Assembly: GCA_963819655.1 (NCBI GenBank) | Contig: CAWFXA010000003.1 | Span: 960,001-1,024,000, forward strand | Reading direction: 5' to 3' | Length of the DNA: 64,000 nt | Source of the DNA: an uncultured Chloroflexia bacterium | GTDB taxonomy: Bacteria; Chloroflexota; Limnocylindria; Limnocylindrales; CSP1-4 | Shown here: positions 10,672-38,149 of the stretch, in pieces | Position numbering within the stretch: position 1 is the stretch's first letter | Layout of the letters: the number at the start of each line of letters is the position of its first letter | Notes under the pieces: model-generated | The model's input: only the letters and a program-made list of their open reading frames with translations | The model's database searches: none | Told to the model about the DNA's origin: nothing | Translations under genes and position numbers: made by a program

Positions 10672-11946
10672 ATGACCGCCCTCGACGCCGGCTCGGCGCG
10701 CCGGCGCTACCTCGTCCTCACGGCGCTGCGGTGGCTGCCGGTCGGGCTGCTCATCCCGATCTTCGTGTTGGTGCCGCTGTCGCGCGGGCTGACGCTCACC
10801 GAGATCGGTCTCGTCTTCGCGGTGCAGGGCCTCATCGTCCTGGCGCTCGAACTGCCGACGGGTGGGCTCTCGGATTCGCTCGGTCGGCGGCCGGTCCTGC
10901 TCCTCGCCGGCGGGGTCGCCGTCGTCTCGATGACCATCTTCACCATCGCCGACACGACGGCGATGTTCGTCGTCGCGATGGTGTTCCAGGGCATCTATCG
11001 CGCGCTCGATTCCGGCCCGCTCGAAGCGTGGTACGTCGACGCCACGCTGGCGGCCGACCCAGATGCCGAGATCGAGCACGGCCTCGGGCGTGGCTCGGCT
11101 GTGTTGAGCGTGGCGATCGCGTTCGGGGCACTGCTGTCGGGGGCGCTGGTCGCGCTCCACCCGGTCCCGGGACTCGACCCGCTGACGCTGCCGCTGCTCG
11201 TCGCGCTCGGGCTCCATGTCGTCGATCTCGTGGCCGTCGCGCTGCTCATGACGGAGGTGCCGCAGGCACGGAACCCGCGGGCGATCGCGGCCTCGGTCCG
11301 GGCGGTTCCGGCCGTCATCGGCGAAGGGATCCAGCTGCTCCGCTCGTCGCGGGTGCTGCTCGGGATCGTGCTCGTCGAGGCGTTCTGGGGGTTCTCGATG
11401 GTCACGTTCGAGAGCCTCTTCCCGATCCGGCTGTCGGAGCTCGTCGGCGGTGTCGACGCAGCCGCCGCGATCATGGGTCCGGTGGGATCGGCGGCCTGGT
11501 TCGCATCGGCGGCGGGTGCGGCGGGCATCGTCTGGGTGAGTCGGCGGATCGGGGTCGCGCGGTCGGCCGCTCTGCTGCGGATCGTCCAGGGTCTGACGAT
11601 CGTCGCGATGGGCGTGCTCGCGGGTCCGGTCGGGGTGGTCGCCGCGTACCTCGGCTGCTACGTCGCGCACGGAGCCTCGAACCCGATGCACACGACGTTG
11701 CTGCATCGGCAGGTCGAGGCGTCGCATCGGACGACCGTGCTGTCGATGAACTCGATGGTCTCCCAACCGGCTGGTTCTCTCGGCGCGATCACGTTGTCGG
11801 CTCTCGCGGACGGAACGAGTCTGTCAACGGCGATGATCGTGGGCGGGATCATCTGTGCGATCGCCGCGCCGCTGTACATCCCCGCCTGGCGGCAGGAGCG
11901 CGCGAACAAGGCGTTGGCCGCGGATCGTGGATCCATCGCCGCGTAG
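10672..11946 (+). CDS. MFS transporter
   Basis: LELPTGGLSDSLGRRPVL motif A; about 12 TM helices. Confidence 0.9.
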   Translation: MTALDAGSARRRYLVLTALRWLPVGLLIPIFVLVPLSRGLTLTEIGLVFAVQGLIVLALELPTGGLSDSLGRRPVLLLAGGVAVVSMTIFTIADTTAMFVVAMVFQGIYRALDSGPLEAWYVDATLAADPDAEIEHGLGRGSAVLSVAIAFGALLSGALVALHPVPGLDPLTLPLLVALGLHVVDLVAVALLMTEVPQARNPRAIAASVRAVPAVIGEGIQLLRSSRVLLGIVLVEAFWGFSMVTFESLFPIRLSELVGGVDAAAAIMGPVGSAAWFASAAGAAGIVWVSRRIGVARSAALLRIVQGLTIVAMGVLAGPVGVVAAYLGCYVAHGASNPMHTTLLHRQVEASHRTTVLSMNSMVSQPAGSLGAITLSALADGTSLSTAMIVGGIICAIAAPLYIPAWRQERANKALAADRGSIAA

Positions 11947-11955
11947 ACTCGGGGC

Positions 11956-12828
11956 GTGCCCGAACCTCCGGTCCAGGTCGAGCGGTTCTCTGATGCCCAG
12001 GCCTTCCTCGATGCGGCCGGGCCGTTCCTCGCCGATCGCGAGGCGGAGCACAACCTCCTGTTCGGGATCGCCGCGAACCTGATCACGGACCCGGACCGGC
12101 CGATGACCGCGCCGCCGTATTTCGCCGCGTTCCGGCGGGACGACGAGGTGGTCGCGGCGGCTCTGATGACCCCACCGTTCAATGTCGTCGTGTCGTGCAT
12201 CGACGAACCGGACGCGATACCGGCTCTCGCCGCGGACCTCGATCGTGGCCGCTTCGCCGTTCCGGGCATCACCGCACCGGTCGCCGTGGCGCGCGCGTTC
12301 TCCGAGAGGTGGGCCGAGCGGCACGGCGTCACGGTCGAGCGCACGATGGCCGAGCGGATCTACCGCGTGGAACGTGTCACGAGGCCGGACGACGTTCCGG
12401 GCTCGATCCGGACGGCCACGCCGGACGATCGAGACGTGCTCGTCGAGTGGGTCAGGGAGTTCCTGCGCGAGGCGGTCCATCGGACCGATGATGGCGAGAC
12501 CCAGGCTGTGGTCGACAGCGCCTTGCGGACGGGCTCCCGGACGTTCTACCTGTGGGAGGACGATGGCCGGCCCGTTTCGCTGGCCGGGGTGACCGGACCG
12601 ACGCCGAACGGGATCCGGGTCGGGCCCGTCTACACCCCGCCCCAGGATCGCGGGCGCGGGTTCGCAAGTGCCGTGACCGCGGCCGCGAGCCAGCAGCAGC
12701 TCGACCAGGGTCGCCGCTTCGTGTTCCTGTTCACGGACATCACGAACGCGACCTCGAACAAGATCTACCAGGCGATCGGCTATGAGCCCGTGATCGACAT
12801 CGACCAGTGGAGCTTCGAGCCGGCCTGA
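11956..12828 (+). CDS. GNAT family acetyltransferase (FR47-like C-terminal domain)
   Basis: RVGPVYTPPQDRGRGFAS, LFTD..N.TSNKIYQAIGY. Confidence 0.9.
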   Translation: MPEPPVQVERFSDAQAFLDAAGPFLADREAEHNLLFGIAANLITDPDRPMTAPPYFAAFRRDDEVVAAALMTPPFNVVVSCIDEPDAIPALAADLDRGRFAVPGITAPVAVARAFSERWAERHGVTVERTMAERIYRVERVTRPDDVPGSIRTATPDDRDVLVEWVREFLREAVHRTDDGETQAVVDSALRTGSRTFYLWEDDGRPVSLAGVTGPTPNGIRVGPVYTPPQDRGRGFASAVTAAASQQQLDQGRRFVFLFTDITNATSNKIYQAIGYEPVIDIDQWSFEPA

Positions 12829-24207: not shown

Positions 24208-24780
24208 ATGCGCCGACTGATCTACTACATCACGATCTCCACCGACGGCATGTACGCAGACCCCGACGGCGGTTTGTCCCATTTCGAGCCGGCCGAGGAT
24301 GAACACCGCTACGCCAACCGCCTCATCCGTGACGCGGGTGACATCGTCAATGGCCGCGTCATGTACGACGTGATGGAGTACTGGGACGACCTCGACCTCG
24401 ATGACCCCAACACCTCCGACATCGAGCGCGAGTTCGCGACCTTCTGGCGGGAGACCCCGAAACACGTCGTGTCGCGCGGTCGACCGGTGCTCCGCGCGAA
24501 CGCGACGCACATCGAGGGTGACGTCGTCGAGGCCGTCCGCCGCATGAAGACCGAGGATGGGCCGTACCTCGCGCTCGGCTGCGGCGCCGATCTCCTCGCT
24601 CAGCTGAGCGAGGCGGGGCTCATCGACGAGTACCGGTTCCTCGTTGCGCCGGTGGCGCTGGGTCGCGGCAAGGCCCTCTTCGCGAAGCTCGCCGCGCCGC
24701 TCGATCTCCGGCTCACCAGCGCGACGACGACCTCAGCCGGCGGCGTCCTGCTCGAATACGTCCCGGCCGCCGACCGCTGA
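24208..24780 (+). CDS. Dihydrofolate reductase/RibD C-terminal family protein
   Basis: STDGMYADPDG, GRVMY, PKHVVSR and LIDEYRFLVAPVALGRGK. Confidence 0.85.
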   Translation: MRRLIYYITISTDGMYADPDGGLSHFEPAEDEHRYANRLIRDAGDIVNGRVMYDVMEYWDDLDLDDPNTSDIEREFATFWRETPKHVVSRGRPVLRANATHIEGDVVEAVRRMKTEDGPYLALGCGADLLAQLSEAGLIDEYRFLVAPVALGRGKALFAKLAAPLDLRLTSATTTSAGGVLLEYVPAADR

Positions 24781-24784
24781 GCGC

Positions 24785-25594
24785 ATGCACGGCTCCGCGA
24801 CCGCCGCGAACAAGCTCGACCGGACCGGCTACGAGGTCGCGTTCGAGGACGACTTCGACCGGCCGACTCTCGACGAGACACGCTGGCTCCCCCACTACCT
24901 GCCGCACTGGAGCACGCCCGACCGGACCGCCACTCGCTACGAGATCCACGACGGCGTCCTGCGCCTGCTGATCGAGGCCGACCACGCACCGTGGTGCCCG
25001 GAACTCGATGGCGACCTGCGCGTGTCGTCGCTCCAGACCGGCGTGTTCGCCGGACCGGTGAGCTCGAAGATCGGCCAGCTCCAGTTCCATCCAGACGTCG
25101 TCGTCCGCACGCCGCAGGTGAACCGCGCGCTTCTCGCAGTCCATCACGGGCTCATCGAGACGCGGATGCGCGCCCTCGACGACCCGCGGGCGATGGTCTC
25201 GCTATGGATGATCGGCCTCGAGGACGAACCGGAGCATTCATCGGAGATCAACGTGGCCGAGATCTTCGGACGCACCGTCGAGTCCCGCAGGGCGAGAATC
25301 GGCATGGGCGTCCACCCGTTCGGCGACCCGGCGATCATCGACGATTTCGTCGCCGAGGAGCTCGCGATCGACGTGCGCGACTGGCACACGTATTCCGCCG
25401 ACTGGACGCCCGATCGCGTCGCCTGGTACGTGGACGAACGGCTGATCCGCGTGGTCGACCAGTCGGCCACCTACCCGATGCAGCTCATGCTCGGTATCTA
25501 CGAATTCCCGGTCGACGACGACCCGCGCGACCCAGCCGACTACCCGAAGGCATTCGAGGTCGACTGGGTGCGCGTGTCGCGCCTGCGGCTGTGA
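24785..25594 (+). CDS. Glycoside hydrolase family 16-like protein
   Basis: FEDDFD, EINVAE (ExDxxE-like with Asn), WHTYSADW and FEVDWVRV. Confidence 0.75.
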   Translation: MHGSATAANKLDRTGYEVAFEDDFDRPTLDETRWLPHYLPHWSTPDRTATRYEIHDGVLRLLIEADHAPWCPELDGDLRVSSLQTGVFAGPVSSKIGQLQFHPDVVVRTPQVNRALLAVHHGLIETRMRALDDPRAMVSLWMIGLEDEPEHSSEINVAEIFGRTVESRRARIGMGVHPFGDPAIIDDFVAEELAIDVRDWHTYSADWTPDRVAWYVDERLIRVVDQSATYPMQLMLGIYEFPVDDDPRDPADYPKAFEVDWVRVSRLRL

Positions 25595-25598
25595 CGCG

Positions 25599-26207
25599 TC
25601 AGAAGTTCGGCGGCGTGATGGCTGAGACGATCTCCGCTTCCTCTTCGCCGACCGCCCGTGTCTTGTGCGGCAGGCCCGAGTCGTAATAGATGGAGTCGCC
25701 CTCGTTGAGCTCGTAGTCGACGTCACCGACGGTGATGACCACCTGGCCGCGCAGGACGAGAGCGCATTCCTCGCCCTCGTGCGCCATCGCCGTCGCGTCG
25801 ACTCCGGGCTTGACGTGGACCAGGATCATCTCGATCTTGCGCCGCACATCGGGCGAGACCAGCTCGTAGGACAACGACCCGCCCGGCGGCTTGATGACCT
25901 TGCGCGCGTCCTTCCGCACGACCGCGCCATTGGATTCGGGTGCCGTGAACAGCAGGAAGACCGGCACTTCCAGGGCGGACGCGATCGAGCGGAGCACGAG
26001 GATCGACGGGTACGCGACGCCACGCTCGACGCTACTGAGGAAGCTGCGCGTGATGCCGACCAGCGCGGCGAGCCCGGTCAAGGTCAAGCCGCGCTCGGTC
26101 CGCAAGGCTCGGATCCGTCGGCCGAGCTGGTCGTCGCGTTCGATGGCTGACGTGCGAGCGGAGGAGCCCCTCTTCGGGCTCCTGGCCCGCGACCCGGGCG
26201 TGGACAT
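25599..26207 (-). CDS. XRE-family HTH plus cupin transcriptional regulator
   Basis: LGRRIRALRTERGLTL..LSSVERG; HEGEE...GDSIYYDSGLPH. Confidence 0.9.
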   Translation of the reverse strand: MSTPGSRARSPKRGSSARTSAIERDDQLGRRIRALRTERGLTLTGLAALVGITRSFLSSVERGVAYPSILVLRSIASALEVPVFLLFTAPESNGAVVRKDARKVIKPPGGSLSYELVSPDVRRKIEMILVHVKPGVDATAMAHEGEECALVLRGQVVITVGDVDYELNEGDSIYYDSGLPHKTRAVGEEEAEIVSAITPPNF

Positions 26208-26221
26208 GGAGCGGGTGGCCC

Positions 26222-27253
26222 TCAGCGAACGGCGACGCCGCCGCGCATCGGCTCCGCGCCGTATTTACGCGTCAAGTATGGCAGAACCTCATCGCGGCAA
26301 ACCTTCGCCACGATGGACGGATCGGGGCTCATGTCGGCCCAGATGATGTGGTCGCAACCGGCCTCGATGAAGGCCTCGAACCGGGCGATGATCTCCTCGC
26401 CGGACGTTGCGATGCAGAAGGCCGCCGAAAGGGCCTCGTCGCGCACCAGCAGGGCCCGCTGTTCGATGACCCGTGGATCCTGGATGTACGAATACGCCTC
26501 CGGGATGAGCAGCCCACCGTAGACGCGCGCTCCATCGAGCGCTTTCTCGCGATCGGGATGGTACGACGTGCTGACCCACGCAGTCCGAAAGCCGTTCGGC
26601 GCGGCGCGCTCGGCCTCTGCGGCGCCGGCTTCGAACGCCGGAGCCAGGACATCACGGTGGACCTCGGCGGGCACACCGACCGCGACGTATCCGTCGGCCA
26701 GGCGCCCGGCGTTGCCTGCCATCTTCGGACCACCGGCCGCGCAGATGATCGGGATCCGGTGCTCCAACTTCTGATAGAGGCGGAAGAAGGAGTCGAAGTA
26801 CGTGCCCTGATGCCGGAAGTAGTCGGGCTCCTCCCAGCAGCGGCGGATGAGGCCGATCGCCTCGACAAGGCGCTCGATCCGTTCACGCAGAGGCGGCCAC
26901 ACGCCCGTGGTGGTCTTCTCGTTCATCGCCTCCCCGGTGCCCACGCCCAGGGCCACACGGCCTGGGTAGAGCAACTCGAGGGTCGCGATCTCGATCGCGA
27001 CGTCGACCGGCTGATGGCGGATCCCGATCGGCGGGATCACCATCGGGCCGACGACGGCCCGTTCGGTGTTGGCGAGGAACGCCGTGAGGGTCGCCCAGAT
27101 CCCCGCGCTGTGGCCCGACGAGTGCTGCCACGGCAGCGTGTGATCGCCTTCCCAGATGTGCGTGAAGCCGGCCTCCTCCAGGTCGCCGACCCGGCGCACG
27201 TTGTCCCGGACGTCATGACAGAGGCACTCGGGTGAGATGCCGAAGGTGACCAT
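26222..27253 (-). CDS. F420-dependent dehydrogenase, FGD/sugar-alcohol-dehydrogenase-like (LLM fold)
   Basis: DHTLPWQHSSGHS and LYPGRVALGVGTGEAMNE resemble F420-dependent glucose-6-phosphate dehydrogenase motifs. Confidence 0.75.
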   Translation of the reverse strand: MVTFGISPECLCHDVRDNVRRVGDLEEAGFTHIWEGDHTLPWQHSSGHSAGIWATLTAFLANTERAVVGPMVIPPIGIRHQPVDVAIEIATLELLYPGRVALGVGTGEAMNEKTTTGVWPPLRERIERLVEAIGLIRRCWEEPDYFRHQGTYFDSFFRLYQKLEHRIPIICAAGGPKMAGNAGRLADGYVAVGVPAEVHRDVLAPAFEAGAAEAERAAPNGFRTAWVSTSYHPDREKALDGARVYGGLLIPEAYSYIQDPRVIEQRALLVRDEALSAAFCIATSGEEIIARFEAFIEAGCDHIIWADMSPDPSIVAKVCRDEVLPYLTRKYGAEPMRGGVAVR

Positions 27254-27672
27254 CAGGCGTTCCCCACTGGAAGGCCGAGCTGCCCGAACAACGAGGCCGA
27301 GTCGTAGTACACGGTCTCGCGGGTGAAGAGCTCGGCGTTGTGCTCGTAGACGGATACGGCCTTGATCCGGAACGACCGACCGGTCGGGGCGTGGCCCACG
27401 AATTCACCCGTGTGCGTGCCGATCAGGTCGTACTCGGCCACGACCGTGTCGCCCCCGCAGGCGACGCAGTTCGTGACCTCGATATGGAGGTCCGGAAAAC
27501 CGCGATAGAAGATGGCCATGAAATCGCGCATCTCGTCCTTGTTCCGGCACGGCTCGGGCACCGTGACGTCCTCGAAATAGACGTCGTCGGTGTAGTACGC
27601 GAGCACGGCCTCGAGGTCGCCGCGGCTCAGGTCGGCGATCTCGTCAAGGACAGCTTGGCGAGGGTCCATCAT
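27253..27672 (-). CDS. SnoaL-like/ester cyclase family protein
   Basis: GFPDLHIE, GTHTGEFVGHAPTGRSF and YYD..LFGQLGL. Confidence 0.85.
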   Translation of the reverse strand: MMDPRQAVLDEIADLSRGDLEAVLAYYTDDVYFEDVTVPEPCRNKDEMRDFMAIFYRGFPDLHIEVTNCVACGGDTVVAEYDLIGTHTGEFVGHAPTGRSFRIKAVSVYEHNAELFTRETVYYDSASLFGQLGLPVGNA

Positions 27673-28588
27673 AGGAGGGCGCCTCCTTGACTCCGAGCAG
27701 CCGCAGGGCAGCACCGCCGAAGAAGCTCTGCTCGTCCTCCTCGGTGATGTACGGATCGAGGTCGTGTCGCTCGGTGTAGTCGCGGACCTTCTCGAAGAAC
27801 GCCTTGCCGGTGTCGAACGGGACATACGGATAGTCCGAGCCCCACAGGAACCGGCCGAACACGCCGAGCTTCTTGGCCCACGTCCAGATCTGGGCGACCC
27901 GCCACAGCGGCGCCGACTCGGCCCAGAACGCAAAGTCGCCGTAGATGTGCTCGAACTTCGCCATGAAGTGCATCGTCTCCTCGGCCCACGCGAAACCGAC
28001 GTGGCCGATGACGAGCTTCAGCTGCGGGAAGTCGATCATCACGTCTTCGAGCAGCAGCGGATGGTCGTAGGCGAGCATCTTGCCCTTCGGGAACATGCTC
28101 CAGCCCGTGTGGGTGATGAGCGGCACGCCCATCGCCTCGGCGGCTTCGAACAACGGCCAGATGCGACGGTCGTTGAGAGCCACGTAGTTGTAGGACGGGA
28201 GCATCTTCAGGCCCTTGAGGCCCTGCTCGTTGATGGCCCGCTCGAATCGCTTCACTTCGGCGTTGCCGCCGAGCGGGTTCGCGGTGTAGAAGCCGAACAG
28301 GCGATCCGGCCAGCGCTGCACCATCGACTGGACATAGGCCCCGTTCTCGGGGTCGTATGCGCCCCACGGCAGGTAGCCGACGCCGAGCACGAACGCCTTG
28401 TCGATCCCCGCCGCGTCCATGTCGGCGATCAGCCGCTCGCCGGGAACGCAGAAGTCCTCCGGTGTCCAGGGCTTGCCCGTGTGCCAGCAATCCTGGCCTT
28501 TGAACATGTTCACGTAGAACTCGCCGAGCTCGCGCGGGAAGTCGACCTCGAAGCGCTGCATGTGCGTGTGCGAGTTGATGAGCGTCAT
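27644..28588 (-). CDS. Amidohydrolase family protein (Amidohydro_2)
   Basis: NSHTH, GLKGLK, HTG, GHVG and WGSDYP. Confidence 0.85.
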   Translation of the reverse strand: MTLINSHTHMQRFEVDFPRELGEFYVNMFKGQDCWHTGKPWTPEDFCVPGERLIADMDAAGIDKAFVLGVGYLPWGAYDPENGAYVQSMVQRWPDRLFGFYTANPLGGNAEVKRFERAINEQGLKGLKMLPSYNYVALNDRRIWPLFEAAEAMGVPLITHTGWSMFPKGKMLAYDHPLLLEDVMIDFPQLKLVIGHVGFAWAEETMHFMAKFEHIYGDFAFWAESAPLWRVAQIWTWAKKLGVFGRFLWGSDYPYVPFDTGKAFFEKVRDYTERHDLDPYITEEDEQSFFGGAALRLLGVKEAPSYDGPSPSCP

Positions 28589-28643
28589 GTGGTTCCTCGT
28601 GCGGTGTCGCGGTGAAGGCGTCGGACCTGGGTCGGGTCAGGGA

Positions 28644-30303
28644 TCACACATCGGGGTTTCCTCGGCGCACGACACGTCCGGTCCGGGCCGCCTCATCCAC
28701 GACGCCATCGCGAACGATCGGCGTGCCGTTGACCAGGACGTGTTCGATGCCGACCGGCGCGGCGGTCGGCGCGCGATAGGTCGTGCGGTCGGCGACGGTC
28801 GCGGCGTCGAAGACGACGACGTCGGCGTAGTTGCCCTCGCGCAGCGTGCCGCGCTTCCTGAGCCCGACCCGCTGGGCGGGTAATGACGTGGACTTGCGGA
28901 TGGCCTCCTCGACACTGAACAGGCCGCGGTCGCGGGCGAAATGCCCGAGGACGCGGGGGAAGGTGCCGTAGGCCGCCGGGTGCGGCTTGCCACGGCCGGT
29001 CAGGATCGCGTCGCTCTCGGCCGCCGCGAGCGGATGCGCGAGCAATTTCTCCAGCCCAGCCTCCTCCTCCGGTTCGCCGGACACACCGAAGTACAGGGCC
29101 ATCGCGTGCCCGCTCTCCTCGAGCACGAGGTCGGCGGCCACGTCGAACGGATGGCGATCGCGCTCTTCGGCGATCTCCGTCAGACGAGCGGCCTTCGAGC
29201 GGTTTGTTCGCCTCGCTCTCGACCCACATGATCGAGACGTTCTGCCAGCCGGTCGCTTCGACCAGGTTGTGTGGCCAGCCGCCCGGCGTCCAGCACGGCC
29301 AGCCGGGCACGTCCTCCTCGATCGAGCGGCGGATGCGGGCACGGGCGTCCGGATCGCGCAGCCGGCCGAGGAGACCGTCGACGCCGCCGGCCAGCGCCCA
29401 CGGCGGGAAGATGGCCAGGAGCGTCGTGTTCGCCGCGATATACGGGATCACGTCGAAGCCCGTGTCGACGCCCCGCTCGCGGGCCGCTTCATGGAGCTCG
29501 ATGATCGCATCGAGCTTGGACCAGTTCGGACGACCGAACGCCTCCATGTGGGAGTGCTGGGTCGAGATCCCGTTGACCTCGCCGACCCGGATGACCTCCT
29601 TGGTGGCCGGCAGAAGCGTCTCGCTCGAGCCCCGGATGTGGCTCGCATACAGCCCGTCGAACGGACCCAGCTCCGACGCCAGGTCCTCGATCTCCTCGGG
29701 GGGCGCGAAGATCCCGGGTGCGTAGAGCAACCCGGAAGACAGGCCCCAGGCACCTTCCTCCATCGCTTTCCGGAGCTGGTCGCGCATCCGCGTCCGCTCG
29801 TCCGGCGTGAGCTCGCGGCCTTCGAACCCGACCTCGTGGATGCGCAGGGCGCCATGGGCGACCATCGGCACGACGTTGAACATCAGGCCATGGCCGTCCA
29901 GATAGTCCAGGTAGTCGCCAAAACCGGTCCAGGCGTCGGGCAGGTCGCCGGCGCGCAGGAACGTCGTGTAGCTCGCCAGCTCGGCCCGGGTGCGCGGGTT
30001 GACCGGCGCGGGCGAATACCCGCAGTTCCCGGTCACCAGCGTCGTGATGCCCTGGGCGGCGAACGGGGCCAGGACCTCCCCGTGCGACTCGTCGGCGACG
30101 ACGAAGTCGCTGTGCGAATGGATGTCGATGAAGCCGGGCGAGACGATCCGGCCGGCCGCATCGATCACCGTCGCTCCGGGCGCGTCGTCGGGGATCCGTC
30201 CGATCGCGGCGATCATGCCGTCACGGATCCCGATGTCGGCCGGGAACCACGGGTTACCCGTGCCGTCGACGACGCGCCCGTTCCTGATCAGGACATCGAA
30301 CAT
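28644..30303 (-). CDS. N-acyl-D-amino-acid deacylase (D-aminoacylase); frameshift near 29184
   Basis: VVDGTG, PGFIDIHSHSD, GNCG, GLLYAPG; C-terminal HPAAYGTFPRVLG...ADVVVFD...GIEHVLVNG is in another frame after one extra base. Confidence 0.85.
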
Positions 30304-30332
30304 GGCCTGCCCTGCGCTACGAACCCGCGGAC

Positions 30333-31766
30333 TCAGAAGCCGGGGTTTGCGGCCAGGTACGCGTCGATCTCGTCCTGGGCCTTCTTGTGCTCCGCGGCCG
30401 GATCGGCGCCGTGGAACGCAGCCGAGACCGCGGCCTCCACGACGTCCGAGATCTTCTGGTAGGCCGCGCGCGTGCCGTAGCGATTGTTCTTGAACTCCTG
30501 CTGCGCGAACGCGGTGTCGACTGCCGCCTGGTCAGCCGCGGGGACCGTCGAGTCGCTGTACGGAGCGATGTACGACGGGTAGCCGCTCTCGTCCGCGGGC
30601 TCGAAGGTGTGCAGCTCCTCACGGCGGGTGAGGAGGCCGAGCTGGGTCGCGGCGTTCGAGTAGTGCTTGATGAGGTCGAGCGCCGCTTCCTTGTACGGGC
30701 TCGTCTTCGGGATGCCGAAGCACTCCCCCACCACCTGGCCGCCCGAGGCGGGCAGGTCGCCGCCGTAGCCCGGGATGATCGCGACCTCGACCGGATCTTC
30801 GCCGAGCGCCGACAGGTTCGGGTCACGAGCCTCGTACCAGATGTGCTGGTAGTCGATCATCATCGCGGCCTTGCCGCCGAGGAAGACCTTCTTGGCCTCG
30901 ACGTCGTAGATCCCCCAGGGCGACTCGATGACCTCCTTCGGCATGTTCGGCAGCAGGTCGATCATGTCCTGCGTTGCCTTGATCGCCACGGGGTCGTTGA
31001 ACCGGACTTCGCCGTTGGGCCCGTACAGGTCACCGCCGTTGAGGTGGTACCAGACGCACCACTTCGGGAAGAGGTAGAGCGGCGCCCAGCCGTCGACGTA
31101 GCCGAACTGGTCGCCGGTCGTGAACTGCTTCGCGGCCGCGAGGAACTCGGCGTAGGTCTTCGGCACGGTGACGCCCGCGTCCGCGAACATCTTCTTGTTG
31201 GCGTAAAGGACGTACGTGTAGATGTTGCTCGGCAGGCCGTAGAACTTGCCGCTCGAACCCTTGGCAGCTTCGATGGCCGCCGGCAGCATGACGCTCTCGT
31301 CGACGGTGACCCCAAGCTCGTCGAATGGGGTCAGGTACTGCTCATAGAGGTCGACCCAGGCGCGCCACAGGTAGGCGACGTCCCAGCTCTCGCCGCCGCT
31401 CTCGAAGGCCGGCGTGAGCTTGAGCGGAAGCGGGCCGAAGGCCTCACGGGTGAACTCGACCTTCGCTCCTGTTCGCTGCTCCCACTCCGGGGTGACCATC
31501 GCGTAGAACCCGGTGTGGTTCGCGAGCAGGACCTTGAGCGGTCGCTCGAGGGTGAACGTCGCCGCCTCGCTGGGTGCGACGGATGGGCCGATGCTCGCAG
31601 CCGGAGCGCTGCTCGGCGCCGCCACCGACGGGGCAGCGGTCGGGGTGCACGCGGCAAGCGCGACGCTCGCGCCGGCCATGGTGGTGCCGGCGAGGAACCG
31701 CCGCCGCGTGAGCGGGCTGGCGAGAACCCCGTCCGGGTTCTCCAAGGGTCGCTGGGTCTGGTCCAT
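30333..31766 (-). CDS. Carbohydrate ABC transporter substrate-binding lipoprotein with Tat signal
   Basis: TRRRFL Tat motif plus LAAC lipobox; YANKKMFADAGV and FLGGKAAM; GGAGGAGG RBS. Confidence 0.85.
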   Translation of the reverse strand: MDQTQRPLENPDGVLASPLTRRRFLAGTTMAGASVALAACTPTAAPSVAAPSSAPAASIGPSVAPSEAATFTLERPLKVLLANHTGFYAMVTPEWEQRTGAKVEFTREAFGPLPLKLTPAFESGGESWDVAYLWRAWVDLYEQYLTPFDELGVTVDESVMLPAAIEAAKGSSGKFYGLPSNIYTYVLYANKKMFADAGVTVPKTYAEFLAAAKQFTTGDQFGYVDGWAPLYLFPKWCVWYHLNGGDLYGPNGEVRFNDPVAIKATQDMIDLLPNMPKEVIESPWGIYDVEAKKVFLGGKAAMMIDYQHIWYEARDPNLSALGEDPVEVAIIPGYGGDLPASGGQVVGECFGIPKTSPYKEAALDLIKHYSNAATQLGLLTRREELHTFEPADESGYPSYIAPYSDSTVPAADQAAVDTAFAQQEFKNNRYGTRAAYQKISDVVEAAVSAAFHGADPAAEHKKAQDEIDAYLAANPGF

Positions 31767-31793
31767 GACATCCTCCTCCATAGACATGACGAC

Positions 31794-32813
31794 CTACTTC
31801 ACGGCGCCTTCGCCGAGACCTCGAATGAGATACCGCTGCATGAGCAGGGCCAAGGTGAGTACCGGGATCGACGCGATCAGGCCGGCCATCGAGAGCTGCG
31901 GTTCGATCCGGTTGATGGGGTCCATGAGGTTGACGATCGCCGGCGCGAGCATCGGTGTGCTGCCGACGTAGAGCACCTTCGACACGAGCAGGTCATTCCA
32001 CGACAGGACGAACGCGAAGACCGCGGCCGTCACGATGCTCGGCACGGTCACAGGCAGGACGACCCGTCGCAGAGCCTGGAGCCGGCTCGCACCATCGATC
32101 CGCGCGGCGTGCTCGAGGTCCGGCTCCACCCCGTCGAACGTCCCGATGAGGATCCAGGTCACGAGCGGCACGGTGAGCGCGATGTGCCCGATCGCCATCC
32201 CCGGCAGCGTGTCGATCAGCCCGAGGCCCTTGAAGATCGCAACGAGCGGCACGAGCAGCGCGACGCCCGGAAGCATGTACGCGACCATCACCCCGGTGTA
32301 CGTCGCGCCCCGGCCAGGGTACCGAAGCCGCGCGATGGCGTACGCCCCCAACAGGCCGAGCAGCGTCGTGACGATCGCTGCCGTGGTAGACACCAGGAGG
32401 CTGTTGCGCAGGCCGTCCTCGAAATACGGGATCCGCATGAGCTGGTCGAACGCGATGGTCGTCGGCGCCGGCGGCAGGACATGGGGTCCCGTCAGCAGAT
32501 CGGCCCGCCTCTGCAAGGACCCGAGCACCACCACGAACCCGAACGGGATGACGATCAACAGCACGACGCCGAGCGCAAGGAGCGACGCCACGACCCGTGC
32601 GCCGAGATCCTGGCGAAGCGCGTTGAGGCCGCGCCACAGGAGGGTCAGGCCGGCGAGGGTGGCGACGACCCAGACCCAGAATGGCAGCCCGAACGGGCGC
32701 GCGATCTGGACGAGCTCGAGGATGGCGGCGCCGGCGATGAGTCCGGCTCCCGCGATCGCCGCGACCTTGGCCATCCGCGGCTCGGTCGCCGTCCGCAGCC
32801 CGTTCGTCGTCAC
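31794..32813 (-). CDS. Carbohydrate ABC transporter permease (MalG-like)
   Basis: LEHAARIDGAS EAA motif and FVLSWND; GTG overlaps the upstream stop. Confidence 0.9.
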   Translation of the reverse strand: MTTNGLRTATEPRMAKVAAIAGAGLIAGAAILELVQIARPFGLPFWVWVVATLAGLTLLWRGLNALRQDLGARVVASLLALGVVLLIVIPFGFVVVLGSLQRRADLLTGPHVLPPAPTTIAFDQLMRIPYFEDGLRNSLLVSTTAAIVTTLLGLLGAYAIARLRYPGRGATYTGVMVAYMLPGVALLVPLVAIFKGLGLIDTLPGMAIGHIALTVPLVTWILIGTFDGVEPDLEHAARIDGASRLQALRRVVLPVTVPSIVTAAVFAFVLSWNDLLVSKVLYVGSTPMLAPAIVNLMDPINRIEPQLSMAGLIASIPVLTLALLMQRYLIRGLGEGAVK

Positions 32814-33748
32814 GACAGGAGTCCCCGCGCCCTGCCCCGCGTGAGGAGCAGGGCGAGCACCACGACGAAGGCGGTGACGACATACGCAAGCACCGCGCCG
32901 TACCCGAAATCGGTCTGCTCGAACGTCGTCTTGAACGTGTAGAAGTACAGGTTGTACGTCGAGTAGCGCCCGGGCCCGCCACCGGTCAGCGCGAAGATCA
33001 GGTCGAAGAGCTGGATCGTGATCAGGACCTGGATGATCACCGCAGCGATGAGGGTCGGGCGCAGGAACGGCAGGACGACGTGGCGGAACCGGCGCCACCG
33101 GCCGGCACCATCGATCCGGGCGGCGTTGATGGTCTCCTCGGGCAGGTACTGGAGGGCGACCAGGAAGATCAGGGCGAGGAGCGAGAACGTCTTCCAGATG
33201 TGGATCGCGGTCAGCATGAACAGGGTTCCCGGGACGCCACTCAGGAAGAGCGGCGGCTGATCGACAAGGCCGGCGTTGACGAGCCACTCGCCGAGGAGGC
33301 CCCGGCGCGAGTCGAGGAACCACTGGAACATCGCGGCCACGACGACAGGCGGCAGTGCCCACGGGATAAGGAGCGCTGCGCGGGCGAGGCTACGACCCGG
33401 GAAGCGCTCGTTGAGCACCAGGGCCACCGCCAGTCCGATGACCACGCCGAGCACCGCCGATGGGATGACGTACATCAGCGTCTGACCCGCGGCCTGGATG
33501 AAGATCGGATCGGTCGTGATGCGGAGCCAGTTGTCGAGGCCGACGAATGGTCCGAGGCGGCCAGGCACCGTCGAACGTCCGGTGACGGTCAGCAGGAGCG
33601 AGTACACGACGGGATAGCCGATGAGGCCGATGAAGAGGGCCGCCGTCGGGATCAGGAACAGCGCGGCATACGCCTGGTTCTCGCGGCGGATCGACAGCCC
33701 GCTCAGGCGGTTGCCGCGCTCGGACACAGTCACTGGCTCGGCGGTCAT
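32810..33748 (-). CDS. Carbohydrate ABC transporter permease (MalF-like)
   Basis: AARIDGAGRWRRFRHV and FDLIFALTGGGP. Confidence 0.9.
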   Translation of the reverse strand: MTAEPVTVSERGNRLSGLSIRRENQAYAALFLIPTAALFIGLIGYPVVYSLLLTVTGRSTVPGRLGPFVGLDNWLRITTDPIFIQAAGQTLMYVIPSAVLGVVIGLAVALVLNERFPGRSLARAALLIPWALPPVVVAAMFQWFLDSRRGLLGEWLVNAGLVDQPPLFLSGVPGTLFMLTAIHIWKTFSLLALIFLVALQYLPEETINAARIDGAGRWRRFRHVVLPFLRPTLIAAVIIQVLITIQLFDLIFALTGGGPGRYSTYNLYFYTFKTTFEQTDFGYGAVLAYVVTAFVVVLALLLTRGRARGLLS

Positions 33749-34878
33749 CGCGCCACCGCCTCGCGCGGTTCCGCGCCGGTGGGACGGGCGTCCAGCGGAA
33801 GGCTGATGCGCTGCCCGTTGTCAGGGTCGAAGAACAACAGGTGGTTCGGGGCGAACGTCACGCCGACCTCGTCGCCGACGGCCAGCTCCTCGGCCGGGAC
33901 GCGCGCCCGGAGGGTCCGGTCCGCCACCACGATCGTGGCGTACTCATCGGGCGCGACGACCTCCGTGAGCGTGACGCGCCCGGTCATCGACGACGATGCG
34001 ACGTCGCGCACGACCCGGACTCCCTCCGGGCGCACGCCGAGGACGACCGGCAGTGGCGTCGCCGGCGGGTCCTGGTCTCGGAGGTCGACGCCGATGACGC
34101 CGGCCTCGAAGCGCGCCCGCCCGTCGACGGCCACGATCTGGCCGGGGATGAAGTTCATCGGCAAGCGCCCGACGAACGAGGCGACGAACCGGTTCGCCGG
34201 TCGTCGGTAGATCGACCCCGGCGTGTCCACCTGCTGGACGTCACCGCGGGCCATGACGACGACCCGGTCGCCCATCGCCTCGGCGTCGTCCTGGTCATGG
34301 GTGACGTAGATGAACGTCGCCCGCAACTGCTGATGGAGTCGCTTGAGCTCCTCACGCGTCGTCGCCCGCAGGTTCGCGTCGAGGTTGCTGATCGGTTCGT
34401 CGAGGAGGAAGACCTTCGGCTCGCGAACGATCGCCCGGCCCAGCGCCACGCGCTGACGCTCGCCGCCGCTCAGGGCGCGCGGATGACGGTCGAGCAGGCC
34501 GCCGATGCCGAGCATCTCCGCGACCTCGCCGACGCGGGCGTACCGGTCGGGCTTGTTCATGCCGCGGAGCATCAACGGGAAGCCGATGTTGTCGCGCGCG
34601 GTCATATGCGGGTACAGCCCGTAGGACTGGAAGACCATCGCGACGTCGCGCCGCTCCGGCGTGACGTTGGTCACATCGCGTCCGTCCATCAGGATCCGCC
34701 CGGAGGTGACCTCCTCGATGCCGGCGAGCAACTTGAGGACAGTGCTCTTGCCGGACCCCGACGGCCCGAGCACGCAGGTGAATAGGCCATCCTCGAACGT
34801 CAGCGATGTCTCGCACAGGGCATCGCTCGCGGCGTTCGGGTAGCGCTTGACCACCCTGTCGAGGCGAACCTCAGCCAC
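33745..34878 (-). CDS. ABC transporter ATPase (MalK-like, TOBE domain)
   Basis: GPSGSGKS, LSGGERQRVALGRA, LLDEP and YVTHDQ. Confidence 0.9.
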   Translation of the reverse strand: MAEVRLDRVVKRYPNAASDALCETSLTFEDGLFTCVLGPSGSGKSTVLKLLAGIEEVTSGRILMDGRDVTNVTPERRDVAMVFQSYGLYPHMTARDNIGFPLMLRGMNKPDRYARVGEVAEMLGIGGLLDRHPRALSGGERQRVALGRAIVREPKVFLLDEPISNLDANLRATTREELKRLHQQLRATFIYVTHDQDDAEAMGDRVVVMARGDVQQVDTPGSIYRRPANRFVASFVGRLPMNFIPGQIVAVDGRARFEAGVIGVDLRDQDPPATPLPVVLGVRPEGVRVVRDVASSSMTGRVTLTEVVAPDEYATIVVADRTLRARVPAEELAVGDEVGVTFAPNHLLFFDPDNGQRISLPLDARPTGAEPREAVAR

Positions 34879-36328
34879 GCTCGCTCCCGGCCGCGGCTGC
34901 GACGCGTTCTGGCCCGGCTCGGACGACCTCCCACTCCTCCCGGAGCTGGTCGGCATCGATGTTCAGGTCGGCGGCCAGGAAGTCGACCTCGACGTCGACC
35001 AGCGGCCTGGACCCCGCCCTGGTGGCGATCCGCTGGAGATACGAGCGCCGCAGCCGCGCCAGGTCGATCTCGCCGATGCCCATCGCTTCGATGGTCGGCG
35101 GGAAGACGATGCGCTGACCCGGACGCTCATCCTCGCGCGGCCCGACCGCCAGCTCGATGCCCATCTCGCGGGCCAGCGTCAACTGGGCGGTCGGATGCTT
35201 GCCTGCGCCCGTGTATTCGGTCTCCTGGACGACGATGACCTCGTCCTCACGGAACTCTCGGGCCAGGACGAGGGCGGCCGCCAGGGAGGTGTTGCCGGCC
35301 GGTCCCCGCTCGAGGCCCTCGAGATCGGCGAGAAGCTGGGTCGTGTAGAAGACCTCGCCCTGGGTGACCGTGACGTAGCGGTCCAGGTAGCGCAGCCCGC
35401 GAGCCGCGTTCCGCGGCACGTCGACCCGATCGGGATCGACGGAGAAGGGAACCCCGAAACCGGTGTGGCCGGTCGTGAACGACTTGCGATTGAAGTCACG
35501 GTCGCTGGCCATGTGCAACCCGGTCAGGTCCACGCTGGCGCCGATCACGGACGTGTCGTCGGCACCCGCTCGCCGAAGACCCCTGGCGGTCCCGGTGACG
35601 TTGCCCCCGCCGCTGTGGGTCGCGACCACGGCCGACGGGGCCCGGCCGTACCGCTCCGTGCATTCGACGGCGATCTCGTAGCCGAGCGTCTCGACACCCA
35701 GCGTCGCATACGGCGTGTACAGGCTGGCGTTGAAGTAACCGGTCTGCTCGAGCAGGCGCAGATGGATGTAGAACAGCTCCGGACCGACGGTCAACTGCCA
35801 GACCTCGGCGCCGTACGCCTCGCACGCGCGTGTCTTCTCGAGGACTTCCGGCTGGCCGCGACCGTTCGAGTCGAACACCTCCTGGAGGATCAGCGCCTTG
35901 AGCCCGTACATCGCGGCCTGCGACGCGATCGCCGCCCCGTAGTTGCCAGACGTGGCCGCGATCACACCGGCAAAGCCACCGTCGGCGGCCTGCGCGAGAC
36001 AGATCGACGCCCGGCGGGCCTTGAAGCTACCGGCCGCGTTCGCCGCCTCGTCCTTCACCAGGATCCGCGCGCCAAATCCGGGCGGGGCCGCCTGGCGGGC
36101 CAGCGCGCTGAGCCGGTTCAGCTCGAGCAATGGAGTCTCACCGACCTTGTTCTGGCGCTGCACGCGACGGACGTCCTCGAAGGTCGGCGGCGGGCTGTCG
36201 GCGAGGCCCGCGTAGTCGAACGCGATACCTCCCTCGAGCTCGTACCGGTCGTAATCGATCCCGATCGACCGCCGCATGATCTCGGCGCGGCGGGCCATGA
36301 CGCCCGTGTACGAGTCGTCGCGGGTCAT
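34871..36328 (-). CDS. ortB: 2-amino-4-oxopentanoate thiolase beta subunit (PLP-dependent)
   Basis: VMARRAEIMRRSIGIDY, KDEAANAAGSFKARRA, ATSGNYGAA, HMASDRDFNRKSFTTGHTGFG and VQETEYTGAGKH are OrtB-like. Confidence 0.85.
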   Translation of the reverse strand: MTRDDSYTGVMARRAEIMRRSIGIDYDRYELEGGIAFDYAGLADSPPPTFEDVRRVQRQNKVGETPLLELNRLSALARQAAPPGFGARILVKDEAANAAGSFKARRASICLAQAADGGFAGVIAATSGNYGAAIASQAAMYGLKALILQEVFDSNGRGQPEVLEKTRACEAYGAEVWQLTVGPELFYIHLRLLEQTGYFNASLYTPYATLGVETLGYEIAVECTERYGRAPSAVVATHSGGGNVTGTARGLRRAGADDTSVIGASVDLTGLHMASDRDFNRKSFTTGHTGFGVPFSVDPDRVDVPRNAARGLRYLDRYVTVTQGEVFYTTQLLADLEGLERGPAGNTSLAAALVLAREFREDEVIVVQETEYTGAGKHPTAQLTLAREMGIELAVGPREDERPGQRIVFPPTIEAMGIGEIDLARLRRSYLQRIATRAGSRPLVDVEVDFLAADLNIDADQLREEWEVVRAGPERVAAAAGSERG

Positions 36329-36665
36329 CGCGGTTCGGACTCCTCGAGCGCTCGACGCGCGGCCACGCCGAGGGCCAGCAACTCGGGGACGGGGTCGCCG
36401 AAATCGGCGGGGTTGCGTGGGTTCACCGGGTCAGCCGACCGCCGACCTCACGTCCCAGGAGTGTGCGCACCGTGACGTCATCGCCGAGCGAGGCGGGCTC
36501 GGCCAGGAACCCCCGGATGCGGGCGACGAAGTCGGTCTCCGCGGTGTCCTGGGGCACGTTGGGGGCCCGGCCACCAGCTGGAAGGACGACCTGGCTGACC
36601 TCCACCCACGCCCCGGCCGGGACCGGCGTCGCGTCGGCCGCGGGGCTGCGGGGGAGCTTCGCCAC
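36325..36665 (-). CDS. ortA: 2-amino-4-oxopentanoate thiolase alpha subunit; frameshift near 36426
   Basis: GAWVEV..VVL...RAPNVPQDT...RGFL...GDDVTVRT..GR, then VNP...DFGDPVPELLALG in a shifted frame ending in ATGA overlap with ortB. Confidence 0.8.
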
Positions 36666-36706
36666 CACGACCTCCGATCGTTCAAGCGCCGGAAAACGTG
36701 TCATGC

Positions 36707-36735
36707 ACGATATGCCAACGACCACCTTGCGTCAA
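36707..36735 (-). promoter_or_regulatory. Sigma-70-type promoter for the ort operon
   Basis: TTGACG-17 bp-TATCGT on the minus strand; -35 lies inside the palindrome TGCG-TCAA-CGCA. Confidence 0.6.
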
Positions 36736-36778
36736 CGCATATAGTACAGACGAAGGCCCGTGCACGGAGGCATCCCGC

Positions 36779-38149
36779 GTGTCCAGCCTCGTCCAGGATG
36801 ACGCCCTGCGATCGCTCTCGGAGACCCTGCGCGGCGAGCTGTTACTGCCCGGCGATGACGGCTACGAGACCGCGCGACGTGTCTTCAACGGCATGATCGA
36901 CAAGCGCCCTGCGGCCATCGCCCGCGTCCGCGGGACGTCCGACGTGATCGCGGCGATCGCCTACGCCCGGGACCGCGGTCTGCAGGTCGGCGTCCGCGGT
37001 GGCGGCCATAACGTGGCCGGCCACGGGACGTGCGATGACGGCCTGCTCATCGATTTCTCCCTGATGCGCGGCGCCCGGGTGGACCTCACGTCACAGACCG
37101 CGCGCGCGGATCCTGGCTGCAACTGGATCGACTTCGACACGGAGACCTCCGCTCACGGGCTCGCCACGACCGGCGGGACCGTCGGGAGCACCGGGATCGC
37201 GGGGCTGACCCTCGGTGGAGGGCTTGGCTTCCTGATGGGGAGCTATGGCTTGACGTGCGACAACCTCGTCTCGGCCGACGTGGTGATGGCCGACGGGTCG
37301 TTCGTGACAGCAAGTGACGAGAGCCACGAGGAGCTCTTCTGGGGCATCCGCGGCGGGGGCGGCAACTTCGGGGTCGTCACCTCGTTCGAGTACTGCCTCC
37401 ATCCGGTCGATCGGTTGCTGGCCGGGCTCGTCGCCTATCCGTTCGAGCACGCTCGCGCCGCGCTCGAGCTGTTCCGTGAGGTCACGGCGGTGGCGCCGGA
37501 CGAGCTCAGTTGCGCCTTCGTGATGGTCACCGTCCCGGACGGCGGACCGCGCATCGCCGCCATCGCGGCCTGCTACAACGGGCCGATCGAGGACGGCGAG
37601 AAGATCGTCGCGCCGATCCGCCGCCTCGGCCCGCCTCTCGACGACGGGATCCGCCCGATGACCTATCCCGAGGTGCAGCGCATCTTTGCGGAGATCCCAT
37701 TCGGGCTGCAGAACTACTGGAAGGGCCACTTCCTGCGCGACATGCCGGACGCGGCCATCGACGCGGCCGTGGCGTCGTTCGAGGGGGTCACGTCGGATCA
37801 CTCCGCGATCCTGATCGAGGCCCCGCACGGCGCCGTGCGCCGGGTACCGGATGACGCCACAGCGTTCGGCCAGCGCCAGGCCCGGTTCAACGCGAGCGCG
37901 CTCGCGGTCTGGGAAGGTCCGGCCGATCCGGACCGGCACATCCGATGGGTGCGCGACTATGCCGACGCGGTCGCGCCGTACGCGTCCGGAGACTACGTGA
38001 ACTACCTGGCCGACGACGCGTCGAGCGCTGAAGTCGCGTCAGCCTACGGGGCCCAGCGCTTCGAACGGCTGGTCGCGCTCAAGAACCGCTACGACCCGTC
38101 GAACGTCTTCCGCTTCAATGCGAATATCGCCCCGAGTCGGCCGGCCTGA
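36779..38149 (+). CDS. FAD-binding oxidoreductase (VAO/BBE family)
   Basis: RGGGHNVAG covalent-FAD His motif, LFWGIRGGGGNFGVVT, YVNY and LKNRYDPSNVF; GGAGG RBS. Confidence 0.9.
   Translation: MSSLVQDDALRSLSETLRGELLLPGDDGYETARRVFNGMIDKRPAAIARVRGTSDVIAAIAYARDRGLQVGVRGGGHNVAGHGTCDDGLLIDFSLMRGARVDLTSQTARADPGCNWIDFDTETSAHGLATTGGTVGSTGIAGLTLGGGLGFLMGSYGLTCDNLVSADVVMADGSFVTASDESHEELFWGIRGGGGNFGVVTSFEYCLHPVDRLLAGLVAYPFEHARAALELFREVTAVAPDELSCAFVMVTVPDGGPRIAAIAACYNGPIEDGEKIVAPIRRLGPPLDDGIRPMTYPEVQRIFAEIPFGLQNYWKGHFLRDMPDAAIDAAVASFEGVTSDHSAILIEAPHGAVRRVPDDATAFGQRQARFNASALAVWEGPADPDRHIRWVRDYADAVAPYASGDYVNYLADDASSAEVASAYGAQRFERLVALKNRYDPSNVFRFNANIAPSRPA

Follow-up and report, generated by a model that had tools for sequence, protein, structure and literature searches.

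A conserved ortAB operon of soil Chloroflexota without the known feeder genes: a candidate new route into a D-alanine-forming thiolase

Introduction

To our knowledge, the thiolase OrtAB has been described only as the final enzyme of two amino-acid fermentations, both strictly anaerobic. How, then, might this enzyme be supplied with its substrate in a high-G+C soil Chloroflexota, within an operon whose other genes belong to neither of them? The question is raised by a 64,000-nt stretch of DNA from an uncultured Chloroflexia bacterium (contig CAWFXA010000003.1, positions 960,001 to 1,024,000; called here the window), with a G+C content of 66-72% across its length. In this window ortA and ortB open a minus-strand gene run (25599-36725) that also encodes an ATP-binding cassette (ABC) importer, two amidohydrolase-superfamily enzymes, a SnoaL-like protein, a luciferase-like (LLM) oxidoreductase and a regulator. 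Genes were called from the listing of open reading frames (ORFs) together with Pfam and NCBIfam scans, and their starts were refined on orthologues.

In the clusters for ornithine fermentation (orr, oraS, oraE, ord, ortA, ortB) OrtAB is the terminal enzyme, as it would be here. The preliminary description of the locus, made from the DNA letters, correctly named the ornithine route as a known setting of OrtAB, and was incomplete in omitting a second one, the hydroxyproline route: according to the available text of PMC13450708, the glycyl radical enzyme HplG, a C-N lyase, makes the OrtAB substrate 2-amino-4-ketopentanoate (2-amino-4-oxopentanoate, AKP) from trans-4-hydroxy-D-proline, so that a source of AKP other than ornithine has a precedent.

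We consider the feature to be real and conserved and to point to a new feeder route into a known enzyme, in a copy that is possibly broken. On balance, we lean towards a regulated catabolic operon for an imported nitrogenous compound, ending in OrtAB thiolysis of (2R)-2-amino-4-oxopentanoate. We came across no description of such an operon in the literature retrieved for OrtA/OrtB and AKP, which dealt with ornithine, C. difficile, glycyl-radical enzymes (a review) and unrelated topics; what is new in the present analysis is the recognition of two frameshifts, a residue-level redefinition of the hydrolase, a count of conserved OrtB positions and counts of co-occurrence.

The thiolase and its missing feeder genes

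The gene ortB (34871-36328, minus strand) encodes the pyridoxal-phosphate subunit of the thiolase. It is intact, and its 485-residue product matches the model NF040741 at 731.2 bits, against an equivalog cut-off of 550, over positions 2-459 of 464. The small subunit (PF22010, NF040739) is encoded by ortA (36328-36668, minus strand), which has its GTG start at 36668 behind a GGAGG motif and is frameshifted in the assembly (see below). The nearest relatives are metagenome-assembled genomes (MAGs) labelled Candidatus Limnocylindria or Limnocylindrales (Chloroflexota) and not actinobacteria, which places the organism in the 'Ca. Limnocylindria' lineage of Chloroflexota. Related loci were taken as the best 80 of 442 OrtB relatives, and the genes of the window were sought in them by tblastn and by clustering of all ORFs. 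Canonical loci, meaning those that have ord and/or oraS/oraE, account for 39 of these 80 rows, and the clusters that they add are represented by Ord (DAP_DH_C), OraE, OraS, an Orr-like racemase and a MutL-like protein.

The OrtB of the window is 57-63% identical (median 60.5%) to the 39 canonical proteins, which are 66% identical among themselves. When a column is called conserved if it reaches at least 95% in the canonical set, and kept if the same residue occurs in at least 90% of the 26-row clade that includes the window, 163 of the 179 conserved columns are kept and none is cleanly switched. We see no sign of a change in specificity. The substrate is likely still AKP, which would be cleaved with coenzyme A (CoA) to acetyl-CoA and D-alanine, because OrtB appears unchanged and because genes for alanine racemase and alanine dehydrogenase occur in sister loci. 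The same genes agree with D-alanine as a product, as had been suggested, and an alanine racemase homologue is found on contig C2 of the window's own genome. The 2-amino-2,3-dideoxy sugar acids that had been listed as candidate substrates lose ground in the same comparison, since an OrtB without a specificity switch at any of the 179 columns favours a C5 substrate giving acetyl-CoA.

That ortAB stands here in a catabolic operon devoid of ord, oraS/oraE and orr was stated in the preliminary description for the window, and the statement can be extended to the whole 91%-complete genome, in which none of these genes was found. The Ord model NF040740 gave no match in this genome, and when the Ord, OraE, OraS and Orr proteins of canonical loci were used as tblastn queries there were 0 matches; the OraS model PF16552 likewise had no match, and its positive control also matched nothing anywhere. 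The MutL-like gene of the ornithine clusters was not found in the locus or in the genome either. No glycyl-radical domain (PF01228) was detected in the genome, the control for this search being positive in 3 of 14 genomes; in contrast to the HplG route, the chemistry leading to AKP here would thus have to be non-radical. Note also that the genome holds a 782-aa ORF (G000:C1:433521-435869, minus strand; G000 is the window's genome) with a Lys-AminoMut_A barrel (PF09043, 105 bits; NF052384, 94 bits vs 600), in which B12-binding and OAM_dimer domains were not detected.

Conservation of the locus

Of the 12 nearest loci (L014-L025; OrtB 77-96% identical), 10 carry all eleven minus-strand genes in the order of the window. 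In L020 ten of the genes are joined by a hydrolase ORF that is shortened, and the contig of L017 measures 5.7 kb. Gene order is kept down to 66-77% OrtB identity, the gene set being present in a different order in L027 and in the Dehalococcoidia MAG L031, and partially in L026. A further 15 rows without ord or ora genes come from Thermoleophilia/Gaiellales, Desulfobacterota, Spirochaetota and Bacillota, and have in common with the window the XRE-cupin regulator, an orthologue of the Amidohydro_3 hydrolase and SnoaL proteins. Besides the alanine racemase and alanine dehydrogenase mentioned above, they add peptidases of types M28, M24 and M20, an S15 X-Pro dipeptidyl-peptidase, an amidase, an ABC system of the Liv type and a related pair of proteins that fit no clear family, called here c31 and c114. 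OrtB, the hydrolase of the type described in the next section, SnoaL and the XRE-cupin protein co-localise in four phyla; OrtB and the hydrolase also occur together in loci of Actinomycetota, Desulfobacterota and Bacillota, and the XRE-cupin cluster adjoins ortAB in 27 of the 80 related loci (28 rows with the window).

The phylogeny of OrtB (a quick IQ-TREE run on 80 rows) places the window in a 15-row Chloroflexota clade with a support of 99. This clade, a 9-row Thermoleophilia/Gaiellales clade (support 100), L031 and L029 make up 26 rows, of which 0 have ord or ora genes, while a second ord-less clade of 6 rows (support 98) sits among the canonical OrtB. A phylogeny had been proposed as a check on the locus, and the ord/ora-less copies do cluster in it, in a large group whose joining branches have a support of 79-81 and in the second, smaller clade.

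Other ord-less contexts were observed in the same set of loci. In Thermoleophilia, c31 (about 300 aa, with a conserved Cys) lies directly upstream of ortA (L028:8759-9706; c31/c114 sites at L073:15485-16321 and L073:18023-18625). Neither Pfam nor NCBIfam matches it, but hhalign (99%) shows homology between its C-terminal 170 residues and c114, which weakly matches ATC_hydrolase and DUF6125; neither protein was found in the window's genome. The cultured Virgibacillus sp. W0181 (L062:1676-15089) has a different arrangement on one strand, with a DoeA-like M24 hydrolase (TIGR02993, 472 bits, below the cut-off of 613), a TRAP fused permease, a TAXI binding protein, a EutA-like racemase-family protein, a DapB-like reductase, a split ChrA/ChrB, OrtA, OrtB and alanine racemase, followed by a divergent XRE-cupin gene and P5C dehydrogenase; this context hints at a cyclic-amidine-like substrate in Virgibacillus. 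In Neobacillus niacini (L032) and Bacillus sp. FJAT-29814 (L051), OrtA-OrtB are directly followed by a class-III aminotransferase (c118) and an ABC system (about 9660-12772), with no ord or ora gene within 10 kb. The c118 cluster adjoins an Ord-like gene in L031. The aminotransferase might replace Ord by transaminating 2,4-diaminopentanoate.

A remodelled hydrolase of the D-aminoacylase fold

The Amidohydro_3 gene of the operon (28650-30303, minus strand; frameshifted in the assembly) was recognised by its profile match to D-aminoacylases and OngB. When 13 orthologues are combined into a profile, N-acyl-D-glutamate deacylase, D-aminoacylase and OngB are matched with E-values of 7e-100 to 7e-83. 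The solved enzymes of this group, AfDam (1m7j), BbDam (3gip/3giq) and OngB (9kb1), have in common with the operon's protein the HxH, Cys, His and His metal ligands (here H62, H64, C94, H222 and H252), the Tyr that contacts the amide oxygen and the catalytic Asp (in the motif 'ESDAIL'). The protein differs from them in an insertion domain that is about 70 residues longer and contains several invariant Trp, and above all in the residues that bind the alpha-carboxylate of the substrate. According to the available part of PMC12017989, these binders, Lys, Tyr and Arg (plus Ser), are strictly conserved in all three characterised groups. Here Lys252 of AfDam is replaced by Glu254, Tyr283 by Ile286 (Phe in two rows), Ser289 by Asn292 and Arg377 by Ala (in the motif 'PHPA').

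The window shows this replacement once its two frames are joined correctly, as do all 8 of the 8 OrtAB-linked rows, which come from four phyla, whereas the nine next-best Chloroflexota paralogues (38-43% identical) largely retain the usual residues (Lys 8/9, Tyr 8/9, Ser 7/9, Arg 9/9). In a draw of 401 genomes of the phylum, in which a copy was counted at an identity of at least 67% (the next best copy reached 45%), the E254-type enzyme was present only in G000, G057 and G364, the same three genomes that have OrtB outside family f34. Any member of the hydrolase family was found in 136 of the 401 (including G266, marked unpublished). In G364, which belongs to another Chloroflexota family, the E254-type gene directly follows ortB with a gap of about 50 nt (G364:C100:1756-4823), an arrangement tighter than that of the window. 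A search of the ESM Atlas with an intact hydrolase returned only generic clusters named 'Amidohydrolase 3 / N-acyl-D-amino-acid deacylase'.

The enzyme is best classed as a distinct, OrtAB-linked subfamily of the D-aminoacylase fold. Judged from its residues it is not an ordinary N-acyl-D-amino-acid deacylase, because the alpha-carboxylate clamp has been lost; it would probably cleave an amide whose amine part bears a hydrogen-bond donor or a cation where the carboxylate is otherwise held. The deacylation to a D-amino acid that had been proposed for this step is therefore disfavoured, the Lys/Tyr/Arg clamp having given way to Glu/Ile/Ala, and 'N-acyl-D-amino-acid deacylase' would be the wrong annotation for the E254-type subfamily.

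Two frameshifts and the state of this copy

Alignment to intact orthologues reveals a 1-nt deletion near 36426 in ortA, which puts the conserved last 33 residues in another frame; the displaced tail ends in the usual stop/start overlap with ortB. It is because of this frameshift that OrtA matches NF040739 at 69.8 bits (cut-off 70) over positions 2-65 of 93 only, while PF22010 gives 69.9 bits against 27. The gene is intact in orthologues, and contigs of relatives in public sequencing runs have one extra base at 36426/36427. In the Amidohydro_3 gene a 1-nt insertion near 29184 separates residues 1-373 (30303-29185) from residues 374-551 (29183-28650). In the 536-aa ORF listed for this gene the last ~163 codons are therefore out of frame; no public-run contig listed covers position 29184.

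The operon of this genome was therefore either mis-assembled at two bases or recently inactivated. A decaying remnant, with real frameshifts, two pseudogenes (ortA and the hydrolase gene) and no catabolism in this bacterium, is a possibility to be taken seriously, if not the probable one, and it concerns this copy only. It would account for two independent one-base indels within 12.5 kb, neither at a long homopolymer, in an assembly that is not riddled with indels, as rpoB and rpoC (~8 kb) are intact. It would also be in line with the rare and patchy occurrence of OrtB in the lineage: among other genomes of the family 4 of 300 have it, two draws from the same genus gave 1 of 19 and 0 of 24, and for the rest of the phylum the count is 6 of 400 other genomes. 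On the other hand, the displaced frames contain no stops (178 codons in the hydrolase) and have kept an identity of 94-97% with intact orthologues, and the nine other genes of the operon are intact. Moreover, residual indel errors are compatible with a three-contig assembly that is 91% complete, and at the indel density seen here an indel-free 8 kb would still be expected about once in four cases.

No public run holds half of the sequence words of the stretch (best 0.35). Two RNA libraries from a single rhizosphere study yield short contigs that align to the operon with 93-98% identity, some of them spanning the ortA/ortB (36122-36471) and ortB/ATPase (34774-35119) junctions. As contigs of relatives, from libraries in which DNA is possible, they do not show transcription. 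The summed contig depth peaks 10- to 100-fold at 34020-34921 (ABC-ATPase) and 37177-37627 (FAD-binding) in four runs, which we read as cross-mapping of conserved motifs from many organisms, just as we read the many 'joints' with 21-24-letter sides as chance matches.

Other enzymes, the importer and the nature of the substrate

The LLM oxidoreductase (26222-27253, minus strand; PF00296) probably oxidises a secondary alcohol with F420. Among solved proteins it comes closest to Adf, an F420-dependent secondary alcohol dehydrogenase (1rhc, 8e-52), and to F420-dependent glucose-6-phosphate dehydrogenase (FGD, 8.5e-46); the five best solved relatives comprise four named F420 enzymes (Adf, two FGD and fHMAD) and 9hav, a 'luciferase family protein'. 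The protein falls below the cut-off of every NCBIfam LLM family. The genes cofD (298 bits) and cofE (252 bits), for F420 tail synthesis, score above their cut-offs and are adjacent in the genome (G000:C1:139267-141576). The F420-dependent alcohol oxidation of the preliminary description is accordingly plausible from the kinship to Adf and the presence of cofD and cofE, and is weakened by the sub-threshold family scores and by the FO-synthase gene cofH not having been found. The oxidation of a 2-amino-4-hydroxy acid to a 2-amino-4-keto acid has a precedent in HILDH, which oxidises 4-hydroxyisoleucine to 2-amino-3-methyl-4-ketopentanoate; HILDH, however, is an NAD-dependent short-chain dehydrogenase unrelated to LLM proteins, and no thiolase follows it.

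The Amidohydro_2 enzyme (27644-28588, minus strand; PF04909) has an N-terminal HxH motif and is predicted to be a metal hydrolase, lyase or hydratase; the proteins closest to it, at low identity, are decarboxylases and hydratases. All 12 sequence hits are BB4693, LigW, ACMSD or unnamed, and the AlphaFold2 model (pLDDT 81.6) is nearest to LigW, BB4693 (uncharacterised), ACMSD and LigJ (TM 0.54-0.69, 13-21% identity). The lactonase activity earlier ascribed to it finds little echo here, the putative pyrone-dicarboxylate hydrolase, a lactonase-like chain, appearing only at rank 48. The SnoaL/NTF2-like protein (27253-27672, minus strand; ~139 aa, PF07366; ATG start at 27672 behind AAGGAGG) has as solved relatives SnoL, 'ester cyclases' and limonene epoxide hydrolase, as found with the 138-aa orthologue from L025 as the query in place of the window protein. 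Divergently from the operon stands a FAD_binding_4/BBE flavoprotein (36698-38149, plus strand; recognised by Pfam/NCBIfam), whose conserved start is probably near 36779. Its full-length matches are to EncM (1.7e-105) and 6-hydroxy-D-nicotine oxidase (3e-57), and gluco- and chito-oligosaccharide oxidases match it (~1e-31 to 1e-25) over residues ~50-235 only, that is, the FAD domain, so that the role of a lactone-forming sugar oxidase is not borne out. The gene is kept only in the Limnocylindria version of the locus: it is present in 11 of the 12 loci L014-L025, at a different place in L027, and missing from L031, L028 and L056.

The importer is a complete CUT1 set. The ATPase is of the MalK/UgpC type with a TOBE/OB tail (33745-34878, minus strand; PF00005, TOBE_2, OB_MalK; UgpC subfamily 368 bits, below the cut-off of 432), and its conserved GTG start at 34878 overlaps the end of ortB. 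Permease 1 is UgpA/GlcT-like (32810-33748, minus strand; BPD_transp_1), and permease 2 is GlcU/MalG-like (31794-32813, minus strand; BPD_transp_1), the likely start of the latter being a GTG at 32813 that overlaps the stop of permease 1. The solute-binding protein (30333-31787, minus strand; SBP_bac_1, SBP_bac_8), with a Tat-like signal (TAT_signal_seq, 20.3 bits) and a start at 31766 or 31787, is of the CUT1 sugar type and has no close characterised relative, GacH being its best solved one (1.3e-11).

A sugar-type importer is what one would expect if the substrate were an N-acyl amino sugar. As proposed in the preliminary description, the BBE protein would oxidise the sugar to a lactone and the Amidohydro_2 enzyme would open the lactone ring; deacylation would give a D-amino sugar acid, which, once oxidised at C4, an OrtAB variant would split into D-alanine and a hydroxyacyl-CoA. 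This scheme draws further on OngB, an enzyme of the D-aminoacylase fold that deacetylates N-acetyl-D-glucosaminate (in the available part of PMC12017989) and is among the solved relatives of the hydrolase (1.1e-33), and on the enlarged insertion domain with its invariant Trp. We nevertheless regard it as unlikely. OngB holds the sugar-acid carboxylate by the Lys/Tyr/Arg set (same part of PMC12017989) that is lost in this subfamily, the BBE protein resembles EncM and 6-hydroxy-D-nicotine oxidase and not sugar oxidases, the closest kin of the Amidohydro_2 protein are decarboxylases and hydratases, the BBE gene is missing from three loci, OrtB shows no specificity switch, and sister loci have Liv-type importers.

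Those sister loci point in another direction, as the M28, M24, M20, amidase, S15 and Liv-type genes stand beside ortAB in Thermoleophilia/Gaiellales and Desulfobacterota. A residue released from peptides (e.g., 4-hydroxyproline or a gamma-hydroxy or D-residue, from proline-rich peptides or cyclic dipeptides) could be converted to AKP non-radically, the hydrolase opening a peptide-like or cyclic amide. Hydroxyproline and AKP are isomers, HplG forming the latter from the former (as the available text of PMC13450708 describes), and the missing carboxylate clamp would suit an internal or cyclic amide. Such a route is nonetheless improbable for the window, as its importer is sugar-type, the peptidases in question were not found in its operon or genome except for two weak M24 matches, and we can offer no plausible non-radical mechanism for the C5-N cleavage.

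That ortAB merely happens to lie beside an unrelated sugar-uptake and hydrolase operon is very improbable indeed: these genes are not known to have been studied together and the importer type varies between versions of the locus, but the junctions are short or overlapping, the order persists down to the OrtB identities given above, OrtB, the E254-type hydrolase, SnoaL and XRE-cupin genes recur together in four phyla, and hydrolase and OrtB co-occur in 3 of 3 cases in the 401-genome draw.

Gene order, regulator and flanking features

The content and order of the eleven minus-strand genes, as first described, were confirmed by Pfam and NCBIfam. Their tight packing holds as well, all junctions being overlaps or gaps of at most ~58 nt once the starts are refined on orthologues. 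The run ends with an XRE helix-turn-helix plus cupin regulator of PuuR-like architecture (25599-26207, minus strand; Pfam/NCBIfam). The sigma-70 promoter claimed upstream did not stand up, as it amounts to a single consensus match (36735-36707), 1 being found against 1.0 +/- 1.1 expected in shuffles; a site scan of the region found no terminator-like site. A plus-strand ORF with a GH16 domain (24644-25594) runs convergently towards the last gene of the operon. Only the three closest loci with sufficient flank retain it (L014, L015 and L018; 83-91% identity), so its position is probably a matter of shared descent and the ORF no part of the module.

A proposed pathway

The catabolic operon that we favour, as the most economical reading, would be substrate-inducible and would work as follows. 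A nitrogenous compound would be imported by the CUT1-type ABC system. The D-aminoacylase-fold enzyme would then hydrolyse an amide, whose amine part probably lacks a free alpha-carboxylate, because Glu/Ile/Asn/Ala now stand in place of the clamp. Instead of the carboxylate it may carry a hydroxyl, an amide NH or an ammonium group, as in an N-acyl amino-polyol, an amino sugar, a lactone or a peptide-like amide. The Amidohydro_2 and SnoaL proteins could reshape the carbon skeleton by hydration, decarboxylation, ring opening, isomerisation or retro-aldol cleavage, and the LLM enzyme would oxidise a CH3-CH(OH)- group to a methyl ketone with F420. The formation of AKP would in this way bypass both the B12-dependent ornithine route (Orr, OraS/OraE, Ord) and the glycyl-radical HplG route. 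OrtAB would cleave AKP to acetyl-CoA and D-alanine, and the latter would enter metabolism via a racemase encoded elsewhere. Strong homology stands behind the last step (OrtAB) only, and we infer the reactions themselves, their order and their cofactors.

Several observations weigh against this proposal. First, we could name no known natural compound that fits all steps. The candidates weighed were gamma-hydroxynorvaline with its N-acyl lactone, N-acyl homoserine lactones, hydroxyproline, 4-oxoproline, ectoine-like cyclic amidines, N4-acetyl-2,4-diaminopentanoate, 6-deoxy sugars, 3-amino sugars, kynurenine-like acids and 4-oxoglutamate; each of them fails to account for some of the genes, and no result speaks for any one of them. 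Second, the conserved OrtB columns need not cover the acyl pocket, which cannot be mapped because no OrtAB structure has been solved (the best PDB match is threonine synthase, 2e-11), and another 2-amino-4-oxo acid could be the substrate. Third, the sample of the best 80 of 442 relatives is biased toward relatives of this OrtB, the 26-row ord-less grouping is weakly joined in a quick tree, and the sister loci, with their Liv-type importers and many peptidases, may use substrates that differ between versions of the locus. Fourth, the LLM protein lies below every NCBIfam cut-off (best TIGR03557, 154 vs 210) and also resembles the FMN 'revertant' family TIGR03885 (143 bits vs 399), and cofH was not found in the 91%-complete genome, an absence that could come from FO salvage or from an assembly gap. 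Finally, the two frameshifts may mean that the operon is dead in this genome.

Implications

Taken more broadly, the locus may represent a third, oxygen-compatible route to AKP needing neither B12 nor a glycyl radical, built on a hydrolase subfamily with a replaced clamp and an NTF2/SnoaL protein (with an F420 dehydrogenase added in soil Chloroflexota), occurring in at least four phyla of both aerobic soil bacteria and sediment anaerobes, and converting a probably widespread N-acylated amino compound to acetyl-CoA and D-alanine. We advance this wider claim tentatively, our confidence in it falling a little short of even. The module offers expressible targets in the intact orthologues of L014, L015, L018 and L019; two bacteria in culture, Virgibacillus sp. 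W0181 and Neobacillus niacini, carry variants of their own. The remodelled active site implies a new reaction for the D-aminoacylase fold, and the LLM enzyme may add a new physiological role for F420. The occurrence of OrtAB in aerobic soil Chloroflexota and Actinomycetota, tied to a remodelled amidohydrolase and an F420-type dehydrogenase, implies a hitherto unknown flux of metabolites in soils and sediments.

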